Part shown: piece by piece, positions 40,222 to 61,342 of the stretch
Layout of the letters: the number at the start of each line of letters is the position of its first letter
Numbering within the stretch: the first letter of the stretch is position 1
From: Promethearchaeota archaeon
Lineage (GTDB): Archaea; Asgardarchaeota; Lokiarchaeia; Sigyniarchaeales; SOKP01
Assembly: GCA_019058295.1 (NCBI GenBank)
Contig: JAHPZI010000028.1
Location: 96,001-160,000, forward strand
DNA: 64,000 nucleotides
Direction of reading: 5' to 3'
Program-made: the position numbers and the translations under genes
The notes under the pieces: model-generated
What the model saw: only the letters and a program-made list of their open reading frames with translations
Database searches by the model: none
Told to the model about the DNA's origin: nothing

Positions 40222-42048
40222 ATGAAATCGAATATGAAAGCAAAACTTATGTTGATATTTTTGTGCTCACTCATTTCACTCTCTTTTGTCTTTGGTAGTA
40301 ATATCGTTATTTATCCAGCTAAACTCAGCGAAAATCCAGTAAATACCAGCGAGCAGAATGTAGAAAAACCCCACTCTTCCACGAATGGGGCGTTCAAGAT
40401 ATATTACCCTGCCAACGGTACGGCATTAACAGACATTGACGATTTTGATTATCAGGGTAATACTATAATCAGTGATGGTGAAGGAGGTGCTATTATAGCA
40501 TACTGGAGTGTGGCTAATAATGATATTTATGCTCAAAAGATCACATCAAATGGAGATTTACCTTGGGGTTTGAACGGTGTAGTCATATGCAACGCATCTG
40601 GCATACAAGATTGGGTTACTCTCTGTACTGATGATGCGGGTGGCGCGATTATAGCATGGACAGATAATCGAGTGGGTACTGACATTTATGCGCAACATAT
40701 TAATTCAACAGGACATACACAATGGGGTGAATCTTGGTGGAGTCCAAACGATCGGAACGGCACGGTTATCTGCAATGCCACTGATGTTCAATTGAACCCT
40801 CAGATTTGCAAAGACGGGGCTAAGGGCGCAATTATAGCATGGGAAGATGAGAGAAATCCAACCAAGGAGATTTATGCGCAACGTGTGGATTCTAACGGAA
40901 TTACGCACTGGGGGGAATCTTGGTGGAGTCCAAACGATCGGAACGGGACGGTTATCTGCAACGCTACTATTTTCCGAGAGGAAATTCGGATTTGCAGCGA
41001 TGAGAGTAAAGGTGCGATTTTGACATGGTATGATAGAAGAACTGGTACTGATTGTATTTATGCGCAACGTGTGGATTCTGAAGGAAATACACAATGGGGG
41101 GAATCTTGGTGGGGTGGTCCTAACGATCGCAACGGTACGGTTATCTGCAACCATACTAGTTGGACAAATTTTCCTCAGATTTGTAAAGACGGGGCTAATG
41201 GCGCGATTATAGCATGGACAGATAATCGAGTGGGTACTGACATTTATGCGCAACGTGTGGATTCTGACGGAAAAACGCACTGGGGTGAATCTTGGTGGAG
41301 TGGTCCAAACGATCGGAACGGCACGGTTATCTGCGACGACACTGATAGCCAGGATTATGTATATCTTTGTGAAGACGGGGCAGGGGGTGCCCTTTTAACC
41401 TGGGAGGATGGTAGAGGAACTGATGATGTTTATGCCCAGCGAGTAGATTCTGATGGCAATACGCACTGGGGCGATGGAAAAGTATGGGTAGGGAAGCCAG
41501 ATCGTAACGGCACGCTTGTTTGCAACGCACTTGGCAACCAAGATATGCCTCAAATTTGTGCTGATGGGACAGGGGGGGCGATACTGGTGTGGAGTGATTA
41601 TAGGCACGGCTTTGATGATCATATTTATGTTCAACGAGTCAGTTCTGATGGCACGACGCACTGGGGTGATGGAAAAACGTGGGGAGGGAACCCAGATCGT
41701 AATGGCACCGCTATATTTAATGTGGCAGGAGTAGATGGATATACGGAGGATGAGGATCCCGAATTTTCTAATATCTGTAGTGATGATAACGGAGGCGCTA
41801 TCATCTTCTGGGGGGATGAGAGAAACGCTGGTTCTAATTTTGATCTATTTGCGCAACGAGTAAGAGGAGCAATTCTCCCTACAGGTGGCGGAGTACTTCC
41901 CGCTGGAGATGACGATGATGACGACGATGAGGATACGGGAATGGTGGTTGTAGTCGTAGTTATTATCATTATCGCGTGTGTTGGTGGAGTGGTTGTTGTC
42001 GTTATTGTATTAATTAAGAAGGGTGTAATAGGCACATCAAGAGGATAA
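40222..42048 (+). CDS. Cell-surface protein with 8 approx. 62-aa repeats (probable beta-propeller), poly-Asp linker and C-terminal TM
   Basis: Signal peptide; DG.GGAIIAW.D.R...DIYAQRV repeats; locally higher GC. Confidence 0.85.
   Translation: MKSNMKAKLMLIFLCSLISLSFVFGSNIVIYPAKLSENPVNTSEQNVEKPHSSTNGAFKIYYPANGTALTDIDDFDYQGNTIISDGEGGAIIAYWSVANNDIYAQKITSNGDLPWGLNGVVICNASGIQDWVTLCTDDAGGAIIAWTDNRVGTDIYAQHINSTGHTQWGESWWSPNDRNGTVICNATDVQLNPQICKDGAKGAIIAWEDERNPTKEIYAQRVDSNGITHWGESWWSPNDRNGTVICNATIFREEIRICSDESKGAILTWYDRRTGTDCIYAQRVDSEGNTQWGESWWGGPNDRNGTVICNHTSWTNFPQICKDGANGAIIAWTDNRVGTDIYAQRVDSDGKTHWGESWWSGPNDRNGTVICDDTDSQDYVYLCEDGAGGALLTWEDGRGTDDVYAQRVDSDGNTHWGDGKVWVGKPDRNGTLVCNALGNQDMPQICADGTGGAILVWSDYRHGFDDHIYVQRVSSDGTTHWGDGKTWGGNPDRNGTAIFNVAGVDGYTEDEDPEFSNICSDDNGGAIIFWGDERNAGSNFDLFAQRVRGAILPTGGGVLPAGDDDDDDDEDTGMVVVVVVIIIIACVGGVVVVVIVLIKKGVIGTSRG
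40641..41254 (+). repeat. Intragenic tandem repeats (period approx. 186 nt)
   Basis: 56-nt identical blocks at 40641-40696 and 41199-41254; gaatcttggtgg recurs four times. Confidence 0.9.
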
Positions 42049-51623: not shown

Positions 51624-51908
51624 ATGATGACAAAAGAAAAAGGCATTGACAAAGAAAGTCTATTAAGTTATATAAAAAAGGCAATTAAGTTATTATGTGA
51701 AAACAACTTATCTGAAGTGGTAATTTTATCATCTTACAAAATAAATTCTGTTCTAAAGGAGAATTTCGGCGTTAACATAAAAGTCGATAAAATTGGGAGA
51801 ATATTAAGCGGTATAGCTAAGCGAAATCAATTAAAAAGATTAAGTACCTCAATACCTAAATACAAATTACGAATATCTAATTTCTCCAGTTTGAAATTTA
51901 AGATTTGA
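51624..51908 (+). CDS. Small basic hypothetical protein (possible winged helix)
   Basis: 94 aa, basic, helix-turn-helix-like spacing. Confidence 0.5.
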   Translation: MMTKEKGIDKESLLSYIKKAIKLLCENNLSEVVILSSYKINSVLKENFGVNIKVDKIGRILSGIAKRNQLKRLSTSIPKYKLRISNFSSLKFKI

Positions 51909-53229
51909 TTATTTTTTTTAATTTTTCAGTTGCTAAATTCATTTCTTTATAAGTTTCTTTAAGATTATTCAGTTCTGTGTTCAATTTTTCAATTTCATTT
52001 GTAATATTCTGCTCTAAAGATGATATATCCGTTGATATGATATTCTCTATTTTATTAGAGAAATTTTCTGTCTCGTTTGAGACTTCTGTGATGTTTTCTG
52101 AGGTCTTGTTCACTGATTCTTCCAACTTAAAGGTTAAACTGCTAGAATTGCTAATTTTATCTGAAAGGTCTTTTAAATTATTTTCTATGTGATTCATAAT
52201 ATTCTTAAAGTTTGTTTCTACGAGGTTATTTAAATCGTTCAAAATCTCGTCTTTAGATGAAGATAATTGGGTTATTAAATCTCTTTGGGCGTCAATCCGA
52301 ATATCTAAATACATAGATATATTTTCCTTAAAGTTTTCAGCAATTTCATCTAAATTTCTTTTAAACCAGTTTGCTACATTGGAAATTCCGTCAGAGATTT
52401 TACCTTTCATATTACTCGTTGAATTTTTCAGAAGCTCAGATCCGGTTAATGCCCCATCTCTAATATCTTTAGTCCAGGTACCTAATTGATGTTCAAATTG
52501 ATCCATAAATAAATCTGCAAATTTTGAAGTTCCTTCTTGAAATCCTGAAATTATTGGTCCTAGGGCGAGTATAGGTTCTTTTGACATAGGGATCTCTTGG
52601 AGATCATCAAGAGGAGATTCCGCCAATTCATTAATTTCTCTGATTAGGATTGGTGCTTTTTTCTGAGTATCTTCAACTAATTTTTGAACCCATTTAAAAT
52701 AGTCAAGAGTGCTTGGAAATTCCAACTCGTATTCAACTTTATGATATTCATTATTTTTATCGTCGGAAGAATCATTTAATCTATAAATTTCAAAACCTAA
52801 ATTCCCTTCTTTACCCATTAAAGTGTGATCGAAAACAACATAAAAACCATAGGGTTTTTGTTCATTCTGGAAAAAGGAATGGTGGGTTTTGATTGCTGAA
52901 TCAGAAAAAAATAGCCCCCATCCTGGGTGGGATGAGTACCAACCTACTATATTCATTTTTTTGCTAGCATATCTATTTTCAATTTCAGAAAAAGTATTAT
53001 AATCATCTGAATTAAAACCTATTGATATTTTTTTTCCATGAGTGATAGGTATGGCATTAATAAGATCAATATCTTTATCGTTTAATTTACCAATGCAAAT
53101 TCCCATCACCTCAACACTTTCGTCTAATGCTTCATTTCCAAATCTTAAAACATGCGTTATCATGTTTCTAAACGCCTCTTTTTTAATTTTTATCTTTCCT
53201 TCTCCTGAATTTTCTTTTTGTGTCGGCAT
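51898..53229 (-). CDS. JAB/MPN domain protein with degenerate JAMM motif plus C-terminal helical/coiled-coil region
   Basis: EVMG retained; GWYSSHPGWGLFFSDSA lacks the first His and the Asp. Confidence 0.88.
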   Translation of the reverse strand: MPTQKENSGEGKIKIKKEAFRNMITHVLRFGNEALDESVEVMGICIGKLNDKDIDLINAIPITHGKKISIGFNSDDYNTFSEIENRYASKKMNIVGWYSSHPGWGLFFSDSAIKTHHSFFQNEQKPYGFYVVFDHTLMGKEGNLGFEIYRLNDSSDDKNNEYHKVEYELEFPSTLDYFKWVQKLVEDTQKKAPILIREINELAESPLDDLQEIPMSKEPILALGPIISGFQEGTSKFADLFMDQFEHQLGTWTKDIRDGALTGSELLKNSTSNMKGKISDGISNVANWFKRNLDEIAENFKENISMYLDIRIDAQRDLITQLSSSKDEILNDLNNLVETNFKNIMNHIENNLKDLSDKISNSSSLTFKLEESVNKTSENITEVSNETENFSNKIENIISTDISSLEQNITNEIEKLNTELNNLKETYKEMNLATEKLKKIIKS

Positions 53230-53234
53230 TTTAG

Positions 53235-54689
53235 TTATTCACCCCCTCCTTCTAGATTTTTAATTTTATTTAATAAATCCTCCTTCTGAGACTCCATTTC
53301 TTTTAATTTATCATTTAAAGATTTAAAAGTGGCTTCAATTTCAGATGATGATGAATCATAATTCGATAAAAATTCTTGTGTTTCATTACGGTAATCAGTA
53401 AATTTATTTAATATATTAGCTATTTTTTCTTTTAAATTGCTTTCAATTTTTCCACAAAATCCCCTTAATTTTTCTGAAGTTAACCTTTCTAAAGATTTAG
53501 TCTTTTCAGATATTTTTTCTAAAGATAATCTTTGTTGAGCTAAACTTTCTGAAGAGAGTTTATTTTTTTGATTAATTTCTGTCAATTTATTTGAATTTTC
53601 AGCGAAATTTTCACTAATTTTATTTAATAAACCATTGACGTTTTGTTCAAATAATTCATTTATCTGTGTAGGGAGTTCTTCTTTTAATTTTTCAATAAAA
53701 TTTTTTGCAATTTCATTGTTTTTATCAAAATTTTCAAACTGATCACCTATATAGGTCTCAAGATCATCTAGCTTATATTTTAATGAGAATTTAAAATTAT
53801 TCTGAAGCTTATCAATTCCTTTCCTTAAATCATCTTTTAAATCAACTAAATCATCTCTAATTTGAATATTATTTTCCATTATATTTTTTATAATCTCTTG
53901 GCTCCAAGAGTTTAAAAAATTTATTAGTGGTTCAATAGATAATTGTAAAAATTGCGAAATTCCATTATGTAAAGCTGAGAGAATATCTTCTAAATTTAAT
54001 TGGGGCTTAGCCGCTAATAATTCCCTTTTGCTTGGAAAGAAAATCTCGCCGAAAAGATCAGGGGTTTCGTTAATCTCCAAAATTGGGGGTTCTTTTGAGT
54101 GAATACAATTAATTAATTCCATTATTTTAAAGTAATAATCTATACTGTCAGGAGGTTCTACAATAGTTTCTACCTCATGATAATCTGATTTTTGACCCTT
54201 GGACGGATCATCAAGTCTAAAAGTTCTAAAACCTAAATCTCCCTGATTTTCTAAAAAAGTATGATCAAAAACTATGCCTATAGCGCTAGGATTTGGAGTT
54301 TGCCAACCCAGCTGATTTATTTTGTCTACTCCCGAGAAAAAAATGTTTAACCCAGGATGTGAATGGAACCAACCAACACTGAAAAGCCCCTTATCAGCGT
54401 ATTTTTCATCTATTAGAGCAAAAGACACATAATCTTCAGGAGCAAAAGCAACCTCAATCGAACCGCCATGCGAAATTGGCACAGCATCTTCAACAATTAT
54501 ATTTTTAATGCCCCTTTTATTTGGTTCACCTTCAAGGCGTCCAATAAGTATTCCCATTACTTCCTTGTATTGTCTCTGATCTCTTACTCTATTACCAAAT
54601 CGCAATATATGGACGAGCATTTTGTAATAGGCAAGTGGTTTGATAAGGACGGACCTATCGCTCTCTTGATGACGTTTACTCAAATTCAT
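53235..54689 (-). CDS. JAB/MPN+ metalloprotease plus C-terminal helical/coiled-coil region
   Basis: EVMG; GWFHSHPGLNIFFSGVD is an intact HxH-x7-S-x2-D. Confidence 0.92.
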   Translation of the reverse strand: MNLSKRHQESDRSVLIKPLAYYKMLVHILRFGNRVRDQRQYKEVMGILIGRLEGEPNKRGIKNIIVEDAVPISHGGSIEVAFAPEDYVSFALIDEKYADKGLFSVGWFHSHPGLNIFFSGVDKINQLGWQTPNPSAIGIVFDHTFLENQGDLGFRTFRLDDPSKGQKSDYHEVETIVEPPDSIDYYFKIMELINCIHSKEPPILEINETPDLFGEIFFPSKRELLAAKPQLNLEDILSALHNGISQFLQLSIEPLINFLNSWSQEIIKNIMENNIQIRDDLVDLKDDLRKGIDKLQNNFKFSLKYKLDDLETYIGDQFENFDKNNEIAKNFIEKLKEELPTQINELFEQNVNGLLNKISENFAENSNKLTEINQKNKLSSESLAQQRLSLEKISEKTKSLERLTSEKLRGFCGKIESNLKEKIANILNKFTDYRNETQEFLSNYDSSSSEIEATFKSLNDKLKEMESQKEDLLNKIKNLEGGGE

Positions 54690-54795
54690 TCACTTTTTTT
54701 TAAAATTTAGATTTGTTAATTCTTATTATTAATATAATTTAACGATTTTAAAATACTATTTATAGAATAAAAAAGAGTAAAATTTTTCCTAAATA

Positions 54796-59044: not shown

Positions 59045-59989
59045 TTATTGTTTTTTTGCAAACTCTAAAGCTTTTTCGGTAGCCTCATTTAATAATTTTA
59101 GATGTCTTTTTCCGAATGATATTAATATTTTTCTATAAAGTCCAGGAATGAATCCTCGTAAAAACTGCATTGCTCTTCCATAGCGTCTCTCAAAAATATA
59201 AAGTTTTTTCTTTTTAATCTTTTTAATAAAACGTTTTACAGCTCGCTCTACGGGAAATCCCCCAGCAAAACCATGAGATAATCCTTGCTTTTTAGTGAAT
59301 TCTTCCCAATAATGACTTTTCCCTATTTTAAGTGCTTCTTGCATATCATCAGCATTAATTCCTTCCAATTTTTCAGGGGATATTCCAAATCCAACTGAAT
59401 CAATTAAATTTGTTCTAATTGGAAAAGGACAAATCACAGACACGTCAATTCCTCTATGACTATATTCACTATAGAGTGATTCACAAAATCCTGCATTAGC
59501 AAATTTTGATGTATTATATGGATTTAAGCCACCAACGCCTAAACTTCCCGCAATTGAAGCAGTCACGATAATATGACCAAATTTTTGTTCTAAAAATTTA
59601 GATATAAACGCTTTTACTACATAATACATGCCAAATAAATTGACATTTATAGTTTTCTCCCATTGGGCTTGAGTTATATCCTCAAATGGCCCTCCAGTAG
59701 CAATACCTGCGTTAGAAAATAAAAAATATATCTCTCCTAATTCTTTAATTGAAATTTTAGCTAAATTTCTTACTTGGGAATTTTTTGTCACATCACAATT
59801 AACTGAGATTACCTTTATAGGAAATTCTTCTAATTCTTTTCTTAGTAATTCTAACTTTTCCATATTGATATCAGAGATTACAAGATTACATCCATATTTT
59901 GCTAAGTTTAAAGCAAATTCTCGTCCAATACCACTGGCAGCTCCTGTTATAACAGCACTTTTTCCTTTAAAAAACTTCTTGCTTTTCAT
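59045..59989 (-). CDS. Short-chain dehydrogenase/reductase
   Basis: TGAASGIG, SNAG, YNTSK. Confidence 0.93.
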   Translation of the reverse strand: MKSKKFFKGKSAVITGAASGIGREFALNLAKYGCNLVISDINMEKLELLRKELEEFPIKVISVNCDVTKNSQVRNLAKISIKELGEIYFLFSNAGIATGGPFEDITQAQWEKTINVNLFGMYYVVKAFISKFLEQKFGHIIVTASIAGSLGVGGLNPYNTSKFANAGFCESLYSEYSHRGIDVSVICPFPIRTNLIDSVGFGISPEKLEGINADDMQEALKIGKSHYWEEFTKKQGLSHGFAGGFPVERAVKRFIKKIKKKKLYIFERRYGRAMQFLRGFIPGLYRKILISFGKRHLKLLNEATEKALEFAKKQ

Positions 59990-60097: not shown

Positions 60098-61342
60098 ATG
60101 GCTAAAAATTCACGATCCGTATTAGTCGTAGGATTCAATACTCGCCCTCTCACTTATTCTTTAAATAAGGCAGGATATGAGGTATATGCAGTTGATTTTT
60201 TTGGCGATTTAGACTTATATCCAAATGTAAAAGATTGCCTAATCGTAATAAAAGAATTAGAAACTAATTATGATCTTTTAAGAAATAAGTATAGTATTTT
60301 TTTAGCTAATTTGACAATCGAGATATTACAAAAATATCCAAATATAGAATATTTAATAATAGGGAGTGGTCTAGATGATGCTTTTGAGGAAAGGGAGGTG
60401 ATTTTAAAGGAAATAAAAAAATATCAATATTCTATAAAAAATTTAAATAACTCTATAGAATCAATTAAAAAAGCCAGAAATATCGAAATTGTGTATAATA
60501 TTCTGTCATCAAAAGGATATAAAATCCCCCTTACCCTCCCGTATGAAAAACTCAAATCAAAAGAAAATGTGTTGAGATATCCGTTTATTGTAAAGAAAAA
60601 AACGGGAGCCGGAGGTATTAACGTTTATAAAATGGAAAATAAAAGCAGTTTATCCTCCTTTTTACATACACAAGAGGCGAAAGGTTTTAAAGCATCAGAG
60701 TGGCTAATTCAAGAATTCAAAGAAGGTATCCCGGTTAGTTGTACAACAATTTCAAATGGAGAAGAATGCGAAGTGATTTCTATCAATAGACAAATTATTG
60801 GTTTAAAATTTCTAAATCCTCCTAAAGAATTTATGTATTGTGGCAATATTGTTCCTGCTTATTTATTTAAAGAAGATGAGGAATTAATTTCTGAAATTTC
60901 AATAATTTTAACTAAAGAACTCGGATTAAAAGGGATTAATGGATTTGATTATGTGTTAAAAAATCATTATCCTTATCTAATGGAGATTAATCCAAGAATT
61001 CCCGGTTCAATTAATGTTTCGGGAGCTGTCCTTGATCTAAACTTATTGGATTTGTATATTAAAAGTTTTGATGGAAGTAAATGGGACTATATTAAAAAAA
61101 AACTTAATTTAACTCAATCTCAAGGATTTGCAACCAAATTAATTATGTTTGCTCCTAAAGAAATATATAGAGATAAAATACAACAAATAAATCAATTTGA
61201 AAACATACACGATAAAACTGAGCCAAAAATTATATCTAAAGGTGAACCTATATGTACAATATTATATAAAGATAAGAACTTTTCAAGATCTTTTTTTGGA
61301 GCCTTAAAAATTGCGGATGAAATAAAGAAAATCATTGGTTAA
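60098..61342 (+). CDS. ATP-grasp protein (H4MPT-linked C1 pathway-associated type)
   Basis: DFFGDLD, K...GAGG, IQEF.EG, YCGN, G.NG.D, EINPR. Confidence 0.82.
   Translation: MAKNSRSVLVVGFNTRPLTYSLNKAGYEVYAVDFFGDLDLYPNVKDCLIVIKELETNYDLLRNKYSIFLANLTIEILQKYPNIEYLIIGSGLDDAFEEREVILKEIKKYQYSIKNLNNSIESIKKARNIEIVYNILSSKGYKIPLTLPYEKLKSKENVLRYPFIVKKKTGAGGINVYKMENKSSLSSFLHTQEAKGFKASEWLIQEFKEGIPVSCTTISNGEECEVISINRQIIGLKFLNPPKEFMYCGNIVPAYLFKEDEELISEISIILTKELGLKGINGFDYVLKNHYPYLMEINPRIPGSINVSGAVLDLNLLDLYIKSFDGSKWDYIKKKLNLTQSQGFATKLIMFAPKEIYRDKIQQINQFENIHDKTEPKIISKGEPICTILYKDKNFSRSFFGALKIADEIKKIIG

Follow-up and report, generated by a model that had tools for sequence, protein, structure and literature searches.

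A 64,000-nucleotide stretch of the genome of a Promethearchaeota archaeon (contig JAHPZI010000028.1, positions 96,001 to 160,000; hereafter the window) contains two adjacent genes for paralogous MPN-domain proteins, which we call A and B. Our analysis favors, with a probability of roughly 0.6, the reading that A and B are coupled tandem duplicates whose products form an MPN heterodimer, in which A would hold the sole active site and B would act as a non-catalytic partner, in parallel to the eukaryotic pairs. Active/inactive MPN pairs are a hallmark of the eukaryotic ubiquitin machinery and are found in the proteasome lid, the COP9 signalosome, and BRISC/BRCA1-A. No published description of the A/B pair was found in literature searches. 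The coordinates of the features are collected in Table 1.

In a BLASTP alignment of 461 columns that spans both proteins from end to end, A and B are 27% identical and have 50% positives (E = 4e-53), a similarity far above chance. Both proteins match Pfam JAB (PF01398; gathering cut-off, 22.5 bits), as does a further paralog in the window, C (48.5 bits); the Prok-JAB (PF14464) scores of A and B lie under their JAB scores and below the Prok-JAB cut-off. NCBIfam has no family for A or B. AlphaFold2 (AF2) monomer models were built from alignments of 32 and 38 relatives. The model of A (me89958072911) consists of an MPN domain (aa 10-197), a linker (198-231), and a long helix (233-480), and that of B (m4ec654d2ed73) of an MPN domain (aa 10-188), a linker (192-229), and a long helix (224-442). 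The mean predicted local distance difference test (pLDDT) value of these models was approximately 69, lowered by the linker and tail, and the MPN core of B mostly reached 84-92. A search of a protein atlas with the A tail (aa 232-484) returned no usable match. The two co-oriented paralogs 5 nt apart, the shared sequence motifs, and the helical tails described in the original prediction were thus all present, and the names of the homologs (Promethearchaeota, Lokiarchaeia, and similar) agree with the Asgard host that it had assumed.

The linker is modelled with low confidence yet is highly conserved in sequence, with a common P-I-L-x-x-I-N-E. This segment directly follows the MPN domain, at aa 199-203 of A (54081-54095; P-I-L-E-I-N-E) and aa 193-203 of B (52622-52654; P-I-L-I-x-E-I-N-E, then L-Q-E-I-P), has pLDDT values below 50 in both monomer models, and is among the most conserved stretches in both families. 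It may be a docking motif that is ordered only within a complex.

The stop codon of A (TAA, 53237-53235) and the start codon of B (ATG, 53229-53227) are separated by a 5-nt spacer. The purine-rich sequence AGGAGGGGGTGA (53250-53239) lies within the final codons of A at a Shine-Dalgarno distance from the B start, from which we infer that the translation of A and B is coupled. The AT-rich spacer 5' of A probably contains the promoter of the A-B unit; in most species, 72-230 nt lie between A and the zinc-ribbon gene.

The zinc-site motifs of the two proteins differ. Glu43 of A (encoded at 54561-54563) completes a JAMM motif of the form E43...HSH...S...D. B has kept the equivalent E40, but its first His (S99) and its Asp (A112) are gone, which removes two of the three zinc ligands, and S69 occupies the position where A (E79) and the intact B orthologs have Glu. 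Ser and Ala are unable to replace His and Asp as zinc ligands. A comparison with the MPN+ metalloisopeptidases likewise gave a complete JAMM motif in A and an incomplete one in B, and the translation and alignment columns bear out the earlier claim that A has an intact motif and that B lacks two ligands. The dead motif of B is unchanged in five independent metagenome assemblies (P0002-P0006) that are 85-88% identical to the window B and is therefore not an assembly error. Judged by its sequence, B is catalytically dead in the source genome.

We collected 80 species-representative loci with 10-kb flanks, of which 80 have A and 78 have B. Below, f1 denotes the GTDB family of the source genome, f2 another family, and f3 a sister family. 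An A profile gave full-length matches in all 134 other f1 genomes, in f2, and in part of f3. In the other f3 genera (g18-g20), the profile matched only the MPN domain and weakly so (E about 1e-20 to 1e-34), and in the two complete-looking f3 genomes examined, the matching genes were C orthologs. Tailed MPN genes also occur in other families of the class, scattered and without a tandem arrangement, and other Asgard classes gave matches at the level of the MPN domain only. In 77 of the 78 species loci, A and B were neighbors. The gap between them, 6 nt in the median, was mostly 0-15 nt and did not exceed 20 nt in 76 of the 78; the linkage in other genomes that had been expected from the window was thus found among species representatives of one Lokiarchaeial family. 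The wider gene order is conserved too: paralog C, a ChlID-type AAA+-vWA gene, and an ATP-grasp gene follow one another on one strand, the zinc-ribbon gene, A, and B are read in the opposite direction, and a 94-aa gene points toward B.

The A motif (E-HxH-S-D) was intact in all 80 species representatives and in every one of the 117 full-length metagenome homologs. The state of B varied. Its motif was complete in 36 of the 78 species loci; in another four the zinc ligands were kept and the catalytic Glu was replaced by Q or A; and in the remaining 38, at least one zinc ligand was lost, with more than 10 substitution patterns (including SxH..A, LxH..G, SxH..E, HxR..D, IxR..T, and CxN..H). Among the 78 related species, 38 thus resemble the source genome in having one partner with a metal site and one without it.

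The history of the pair was examined with trees of Lokiarchaeial MPN proteins, and the relation to eukaryotic MPN families (Rpn11, Rpn8, CSN5/6, BRCC36, and AMSH) was judged from PDB sequence and fold rankings. In the MPN-domain tree of A, B, C, a fourth paralog (D), and other-family homologs, A and B were sisters (support 93) and monophyletic (97 and 99). The B clade was also monophyletic in a tree rooted with A, with a Shimodaira-Hasegawa-like approximate likelihood ratio test (SH-aLRT) support of 100, and its earliest branches are intact. Because B is sister to A and these early branches are intact, the dead state is derived. On the B tree, the intact/dead state had to change six times, and well-supported branches made five of these changes unavoidable; on the A tree, it had to change 10 times, six of them unavoidably. 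A metal site, once lost, is unlikely to be regained, and we therefore take this to mean that B lost its site independently at least five times. The A tree and the B tree recovered the same major clades, which indicates vertical co-descent. These results indicate that A and B arose by duplication inside one Lokiarchaeial order and that the ancestral pair was MPN+/MPN+, with the pseudo-enzyme state as a derived and recurrent condition.

A near-identical dead motif, G-W-Y-I/L-S-R-P-G-W-G-L-D-F-T-D/E-I-T, was observed in two B clades (loci L019, L025, L029, L034, and L048 versus L066, L067, L080, L082, and L086) that lie well apart on the A and B trees. One of the two is nested among intact G-Y-Y-H-S-H-P-S-W-G copies of B. 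Between alignment columns 60 and 120, identity tends to be higher between the two dead clades (49-60%) than between the nested clade and its intact neighbors (44-47%). The shared motif could reflect convergence or a short gene conversion.

The dead copies of B are under purifying selection. In nine close species pairs, their ratio of nonsynonymous to synonymous substitution rates (dN/dS, Nei-Gojobori) was 0.12-0.32 for the whole gene and 0.09-0.26 for the MPN domain alone, compared with 0.09-0.28 for A (all 17 close pairs) and 0.19-0.63 for intact B. All 38 species with a dead B have a full-length open reading frame (ORF) of 438-471 aa. B is the more variable protein, with a mean MPN-domain column entropy of about 1.5 against about 0.9 for A and with longer branches. 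Conservation within its MPN domain is highest in helix α1 and in the last MPN helix together with the linker behind it; dead copies have lost the motif region and the Glu equivalent to E79 of A. The columns of the predicted interface of B (see below) have a lower entropy than the rest of the MPN domain (1.19 versus 1.59; Mann-Whitney p = 0.005).

For complex prediction, we modelled one pairing, A 1-310 with B 1-300, using separate alignments and three controls. The interaction prediction score from aligned errors (ipSAE) was 0.82 for A-B and 0.00 for the best control; the runs agreed in at least 55% of contacts, and the partner pLDDT was at least 69. Of 80 solved complexes, 58 attained this ipSAE mark, as did 2 of 110 mismatched pairs; these counts apply to A-B only approximately, because its alignments were user-made. 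The prediction supports the binding of A and B to each other. The predicted interface is a pseudo-symmetric four-helix bundle formed by α1 and α4 of each protein. The best-defined contacts of the model pair equivalent residues in register (A185-B177, A189-B181, and A192-B184), indicating a parallel arrangement. The two families differ at interface positions, where A has Y22 (99%) and B has R21 (85%), A has K188 (82%) and B has W180 (95%), and A has N194 and B has E186; conserved differences of this kind fit a specialized hetero-interface. The mutual information of the A-B contact columns was not above background (0.18 versus 0.28), a comparison that is uninformative, being based on nine variable contact pairs and confounded by phylogeny. 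The original prediction had proposed an enzyme/pseudo-enzyme complex and had compared it with eukaryotic heterodimers joined through C-terminal helices; the model supports a heterodimer, for the A-B pairing only, but places the confident contacts in α1/α4 of the MPN domains and not in the long tails.

We propose the following scenario. A tandem duplication in one Lokiarchaeial lineage would have given rise to A and B, which would be translated in a coupled manner from one bicistronic message. Their products would most likely assemble into an MPN heterodimer, with helical tails of ~220-250 residues projecting from the α1/α4 bundle. In the source genome, A would provide the only zinc-dependent isopeptidase site of the pair, and B would be a structural or regulatory partner without catalytic function. 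Both subunits were presumably active in the ancestor, and the B site would have decayed independently in at least five lineages while the fold and interface stayed under purifying selection; we suggest that it decays repeatedly because the complex requires only one active site. The bond cleaved would likely be an isopeptide or peptide bond that follows a ubiquitin-like C-terminus. The source genome encodes ubiquitin-like proteins that exceed the Pfam cut-off, as well as two E1/E2 clusters that each include a short JAMM gene of their own. Because of these proteins and clusters, a ubiquitin or ubiquitin-like isopeptide is a plausible substrate of A, to which we give a somewhat less than even chance, and the neighboring ATP-grasp ligase raises the possibility of a different tag.

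Several observations weigh against this scenario. With regard to the complex, cousins of a true partner often pass this type of test and A-B was the only pairing modelled, and the high score may reflect the resemblance of A-B to solved MPN dimers. The first ~70 tail residues of A and B were included in the model and are absent from the confident contacts. Tail lengths (268-428 aa in A and 222-262 aa in B) do not covary (rho = -0.01), although with respect to an in-register coiled coil this result says little either way. In one locus (L050, the closest fetched relative of the source genome), A and B are both intact but lie 6 kb and four unrelated genes apart. With regard to function, neither a ubiquitin gene nor one for a ubiquitin-like protein was found within the A/B locus, and because the E1/E2 clusters have JAMM genes of their own, A and B are not required for deubiquitination. 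Finally, 40 of the 78 B orthologs, about half of the family, retain all three zinc ligands. The term enzyme plus pseudo-enzyme, as used in the original prediction, therefore fits the source genome and some lineages but not the whole family, and retention of HxH/D by most orthologs of the second gene, named there as the finding that would speak against it, applies to about half of them.

The insert that separates the genes in L050 (11465-17510) encodes a protein with a weak match to Arf-like GTPases, a hexapeptide transferase, and two unknowns, and L050 is the only such locus among the 78.

An alternative without a heterodimer is that A and B act alone or as homodimers on their own stalks, that A is an isopeptidase and dead B a non-catalytic receptor or decoy for the same ubiquitin-like ligand, and that the linkage serves co-expression. 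The intact B proteins of 40 species could be separate enzymes, and the interface helices of A and B are alike (a common H-x-L-R-F-G-N), so that homodimers are plausible; the Rpn11-like JAMM protein of Caldiarchaeum subterraneum (CsRpn11) forms an H1/H4 homodimer in crystals and is a monomer in solution (PMC6043591). The tail lengths and the separated genes of L050 also agree with independent proteins. However, the heterodimer model scored far above its best control, the most conserved surface of the B MPN domain is the predicted interface rather than the substrate groove, the motif residues being lost in dead copies, and the family-specific interface differences together with adjacency in 77 of 78 species fit a hetero-pair. 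We consider independent action of A and B rather unlikely.

A broader alternative takes A and B as one module of a locus-wide, ATP-driven machine for tagging and de-tagging or remodelling, whose tag, removed by the MPN proteins, need not be ubiquitin and could, for instance, be a peptide or amino acid attached by the ATP-grasp ligase. A and B would then be the deconjugating head of an undescribed assembly that also contains paralog C, the zinc-ribbon protein as an adaptor, a CobN-free AAA+-vWA motor, and the ATP-grasp ligase, and that would be a functional analogue of the lid/base or BRISC-type assemblies. The gene order recurs in most of the 80 species loci, and the AAA+-vWA protein is 72-90% identical across loci though no more than 15 of 41 family genomes yielded CobN. 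Eukaryotic MPN pairs also work alongside vWA proteins, namely Rpn10 in the proteasome and MERIT40 in BRISC. On the other hand, the conserved neighborhood is the sole link between these genes, the two halves of the locus are transcribed divergently, a short-chain dehydrogenase/reductase (SDR) gene on the opposite strand parts the AAA+-vWA gene from the ATP-grasp gene in the window, and C orthologs occur in f3 genomes that have no close A/B homolog. Such a machine seems decidedly improbable to us.

It is very unlikely that the window B is simply a decaying gene or a hydrolase with substitute ligands. Two of its three zinc ligands are gone and B evolves faster than A, but the full-length ORFs in all 38 dead-B species, the dN/dS values given above, and the same dead motif in related assemblies point to a maintained protein, and Ser and Ala do not serve as zinc ligands.

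We then compared the favored A-B heterodimer with known MPN systems. The best Foldseek matches of the A and B folds were Rpn11, CSN5, and BRCC36 (E about 1e-11 to 1e-12, probability 1.00), with Rpn11 at the top (target-normalized template modelling score up to 0.72-0.76). The best PDB sequence match of A was CsRpn11 (PDB 6fju/6fjv, E = 1.6e-8), with Rpn11, CSN5, and BRCC36 also among the top-ranked proteins. B matched only CSN5, Rpn11, BRCC36, and CsRpn11 in the PDB at E<=0.01, without any MPN- subunit, and CSN6 appeared first at Foldseek rank 38. No specific affinity of B to Rpn8, CSN6, eIF3f/h, or Abraxas/ABRO1 was found in the Lokiarchaeial trees or the PDB sequence and fold rankings. A search of representative proteins with the A MPN domain gave 596 matches at E<=1e-3 (224 at <=1e-10); the best 150 of the 596 (E<=3e-17) are unnamed and resemble further archaeal tailed MPN proteins.

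BRCC36 and KIAA0157 are joined by β-sheet fusion together with a coiled-coil bundle of α4/α5, and activity depends on the pseudo-deubiquitinase (PMC4579573). Like BRCC36 with Abraxas or KIAA0157 (ABRO1), A and B combine an MPN+ enzyme with an MPN- paralog, both with C-terminal helical extensions. In contrast, the confident contacts of the A-B model involve only α1 and α4 and its tails are not confidently paired; the A/B tails are far longer (~220-250 aa), and B is not an Abraxas ortholog, half of the B orthologs being MPN+. Rpn8 and Rpn11 contact each other through an α2-α2 interface (interface 1) and a four-helix bundle to which both subunits contribute α1 and α4 (interface 2) (10.1101/2024.09.18.613619), in an arrangement described as antiparallel (PMC6043591). 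The A-B model uses the α1/α4 elements of interface 2, but the α2-α2 interface is not among its confident contacts, and equivalent residues are paired in parallel. Unlike Rpn11-Rpn8 and CSN5-CSN6, A and B have no PCI partner in their locus, and they have long single helices instead of a MitMem_reg-type C-terminal domain. No PCI gene was found in the conserved locus; PCI-like winged-helix matches occur on other contigs, and the same profile also matches control prokaryotes.

CsRpn11 forms a parallel H1/H4 homodimer in the crystal, is active alone, and is encoded by a single gene inside an operon with ubiquitin, E1, E2, and E3 genes; according to this 2018 structural study, an Rpn11/Rpn8-type organization is not known in archaea (PMC6043591). 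Both systems are archaeal JAMM proteins of the eukaryotic type, and the A-B model shares helices H1/H4 and the apparent orientation. The counterparts of CsRpn11 in the source genome, however, are the 163-aa and 266-aa JAMM proteins encoded next to the E1/E2 genes, and A and B form a separate lineage that is tailed and duplicated. In architecture, A and B appear nearest in kind to BRCC36-Abraxas, and in their modelled interface they most resemble Rpn8-Rpn11 and CsRpn11 with their α1/α4 bundle. The trees and rankings indicate that the pair is a parallel invention and not an ancestor of Rpn11/Rpn8 or CSN5/CSN6. Of the two origins originally left open, related or convergent, only the convergent one survives. 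Homology to the eukaryotic MPN+/MPN- pairs, by an ancestral or shared origin before the last eukaryotic common ancestor, is the least probable explanation of all, because the eukaryote-type fold, best matches, and JAB scores and the shared α1/α4 bundle stand against the mutual closeness of A and B to the exclusion of C, D, and the Lokiarchaeial homologs of other families, the confinement of full-length A to f1, f2, and part of f3, an ancestral B that was MPN+, and the absence of MPN- subunits from the PDB matches of B.

On the favored reading, the design of an enzyme with a dead twin would have arisen independently in an Asgard lineage. Living relatives display all stages, from two intact sites through loss of the catalytic Glu or of a single ligand to loss of every ligand, and the losses, at least five in number and independent, would provide natural replicates of the process by which a duplicated enzyme subunit turns into a pseudo-enzyme and still keeps its interface. 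A two-protein system with active and dead variants of B in sister species should be tractable for determining what a dead partner contributes. The pair tells nothing about how Rpn8, CSN6, or Abraxas themselves originated.

Table 1 Coordinates of A, B, and further features. Positions are those of the window, except where a locus number (L) precedes them.
Feature	Position	Strand	Remarks
Gene A	53235..54689	minus	ORF, 484 aa, MPN+, Pfam JAB 41.2 bits
Gene B	51898..53229	minus	ORF, 443 aa, paralog of A, MPN- in source genome, Pfam JAB 56.9 bits
A-B junction	53230..53250	minus	Shine-Dalgarno-like AGGAGGGGGTGA, TAA, 5-nt spacer, ATG of B
AT-rich spacer 5' of A, 106 nt	54690..54795	minus	TATA-like stretches, AAGTGA ahead of ATG; sequence only
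A JAMM core, H109-S-H111-x7-S119-x2-D122	54324..54365	minus	Translation and alignment columns
B degenerate motif, S99-S-H101-x7-S109-x2-A112	52894..52935	minus	Translation and alignment columns
Predicted A interface	54099..54638	minus	α1 aa 18-36, α4 and flanks 177-202, aa 146-152; model
Predicted B interface	52645..53172	minus	α1 aa 20-35, α4 and flanks 169-195, aa 138-144; model
Zinc-ribbon protein, 230 aa	54796..55488	minus	C-terminal ribbon; Pfam DZR below cut-off; same position in 76/80 loci
Paralog C, 318 aa	55687..56643	plus	MPN+, HSH...T..D; divergent from A/B, shorter helical tail; 67/80 loci
ChlI/ChlD-type AAA+-vWA fusion, 752 aa	56720..58978	plus	3' of C; Pfam match; TIGR02442 583 bits, below cut-off
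ATP-grasp ligase-like gene	60098..61342	plus	Pfam ATP-grasp_3, 2e-29; synteny in 60/80 loci
Small gene, 94 aa	51624..51908	plus	Convergent on 3' end of B; 69/80 loci, 61-81% identity
163-aa JAMM	L003:1372-1863	minus	Beside E1-like, E2-like, and GTPase-like genes
266-aa JAMM	L004:1279-2079	minus	Beside E2 gene, E1-like fragment, and membrane zinc-finger protein
Paralog D, 369 aa	L006:1432-2541	plus	Fourth tailed paralog, MPN+, on another contig of source genome, closest to A
Split C orthologs	L014:7987-8971, L031:7880-8870, L035:7882-8881, L036:7880-8866, L040:7883-8870
Split C orthologs, continued	L041:7883-8865, L043:306-1293, L045:7877-8863, L048:7821-8798

Among the neighboring genes, the AAA+-vWA gene appears to encode a chelatase-type motor that is an orphan. 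It shares an apparent operon with C and, in most relatives, with the ATP-grasp gene, which directly follows it there; in the window, the SDR gene (59045-59989) intervenes. CobN, the large chelatase subunit, is the usual partner of ChlID-type AAA+-vWA proteins. It was found in none of the five genomes of the source genus, four of which are at least 91% complete, and a classical cobaltochelatase role of the AAA+-vWA gene is weakened by the absence of CobN from most family genomes. A defense-system reading of the locus was rejected, since PADLOC gave only weak JAB matches and coiled-coil noise (JetC, ZorA, and LmuB, E 1e-3 to 1e-6). The 94-aa gene has no Pfam or NCBIfam family above threshold and is better conserved than A or B. 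An Rfam scan of the whole window gave no family at the gathering score, and a search of sequencing runs returned 20 DNA runs, all sediment metagenomes, and no RNA run. The ORF at 40222-42048 (plus strand, 608 aa), without a Pfam family above threshold, occupies a 2-kb stretch with 43% G+C, compared with ~29% in the rest of the window.

Paralog C belongs to a separate clade outside A and B. It has Thr where the JAMM motif has Ser, and its motif is intact wherever the gene is whole among the 67 species loci that have it. In nine of these 67 species, a break that falls exactly within the JAMM motif divides C into two ORFs; the C gene of the window is unsplit. The N-terminal piece ends just past W-H-S-H-P-G-F, followed by 8-12 odd codons and stops, often in two frames, and the second piece has a Shine-Dalgarno-like AAGGTGA, an ATGATG start (M-M-S-H-I-D...), and the Ser/Asp half of the motif. 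With its conserved junction, the split looks like a gene fission with termination-reinitiation rather than random decay.

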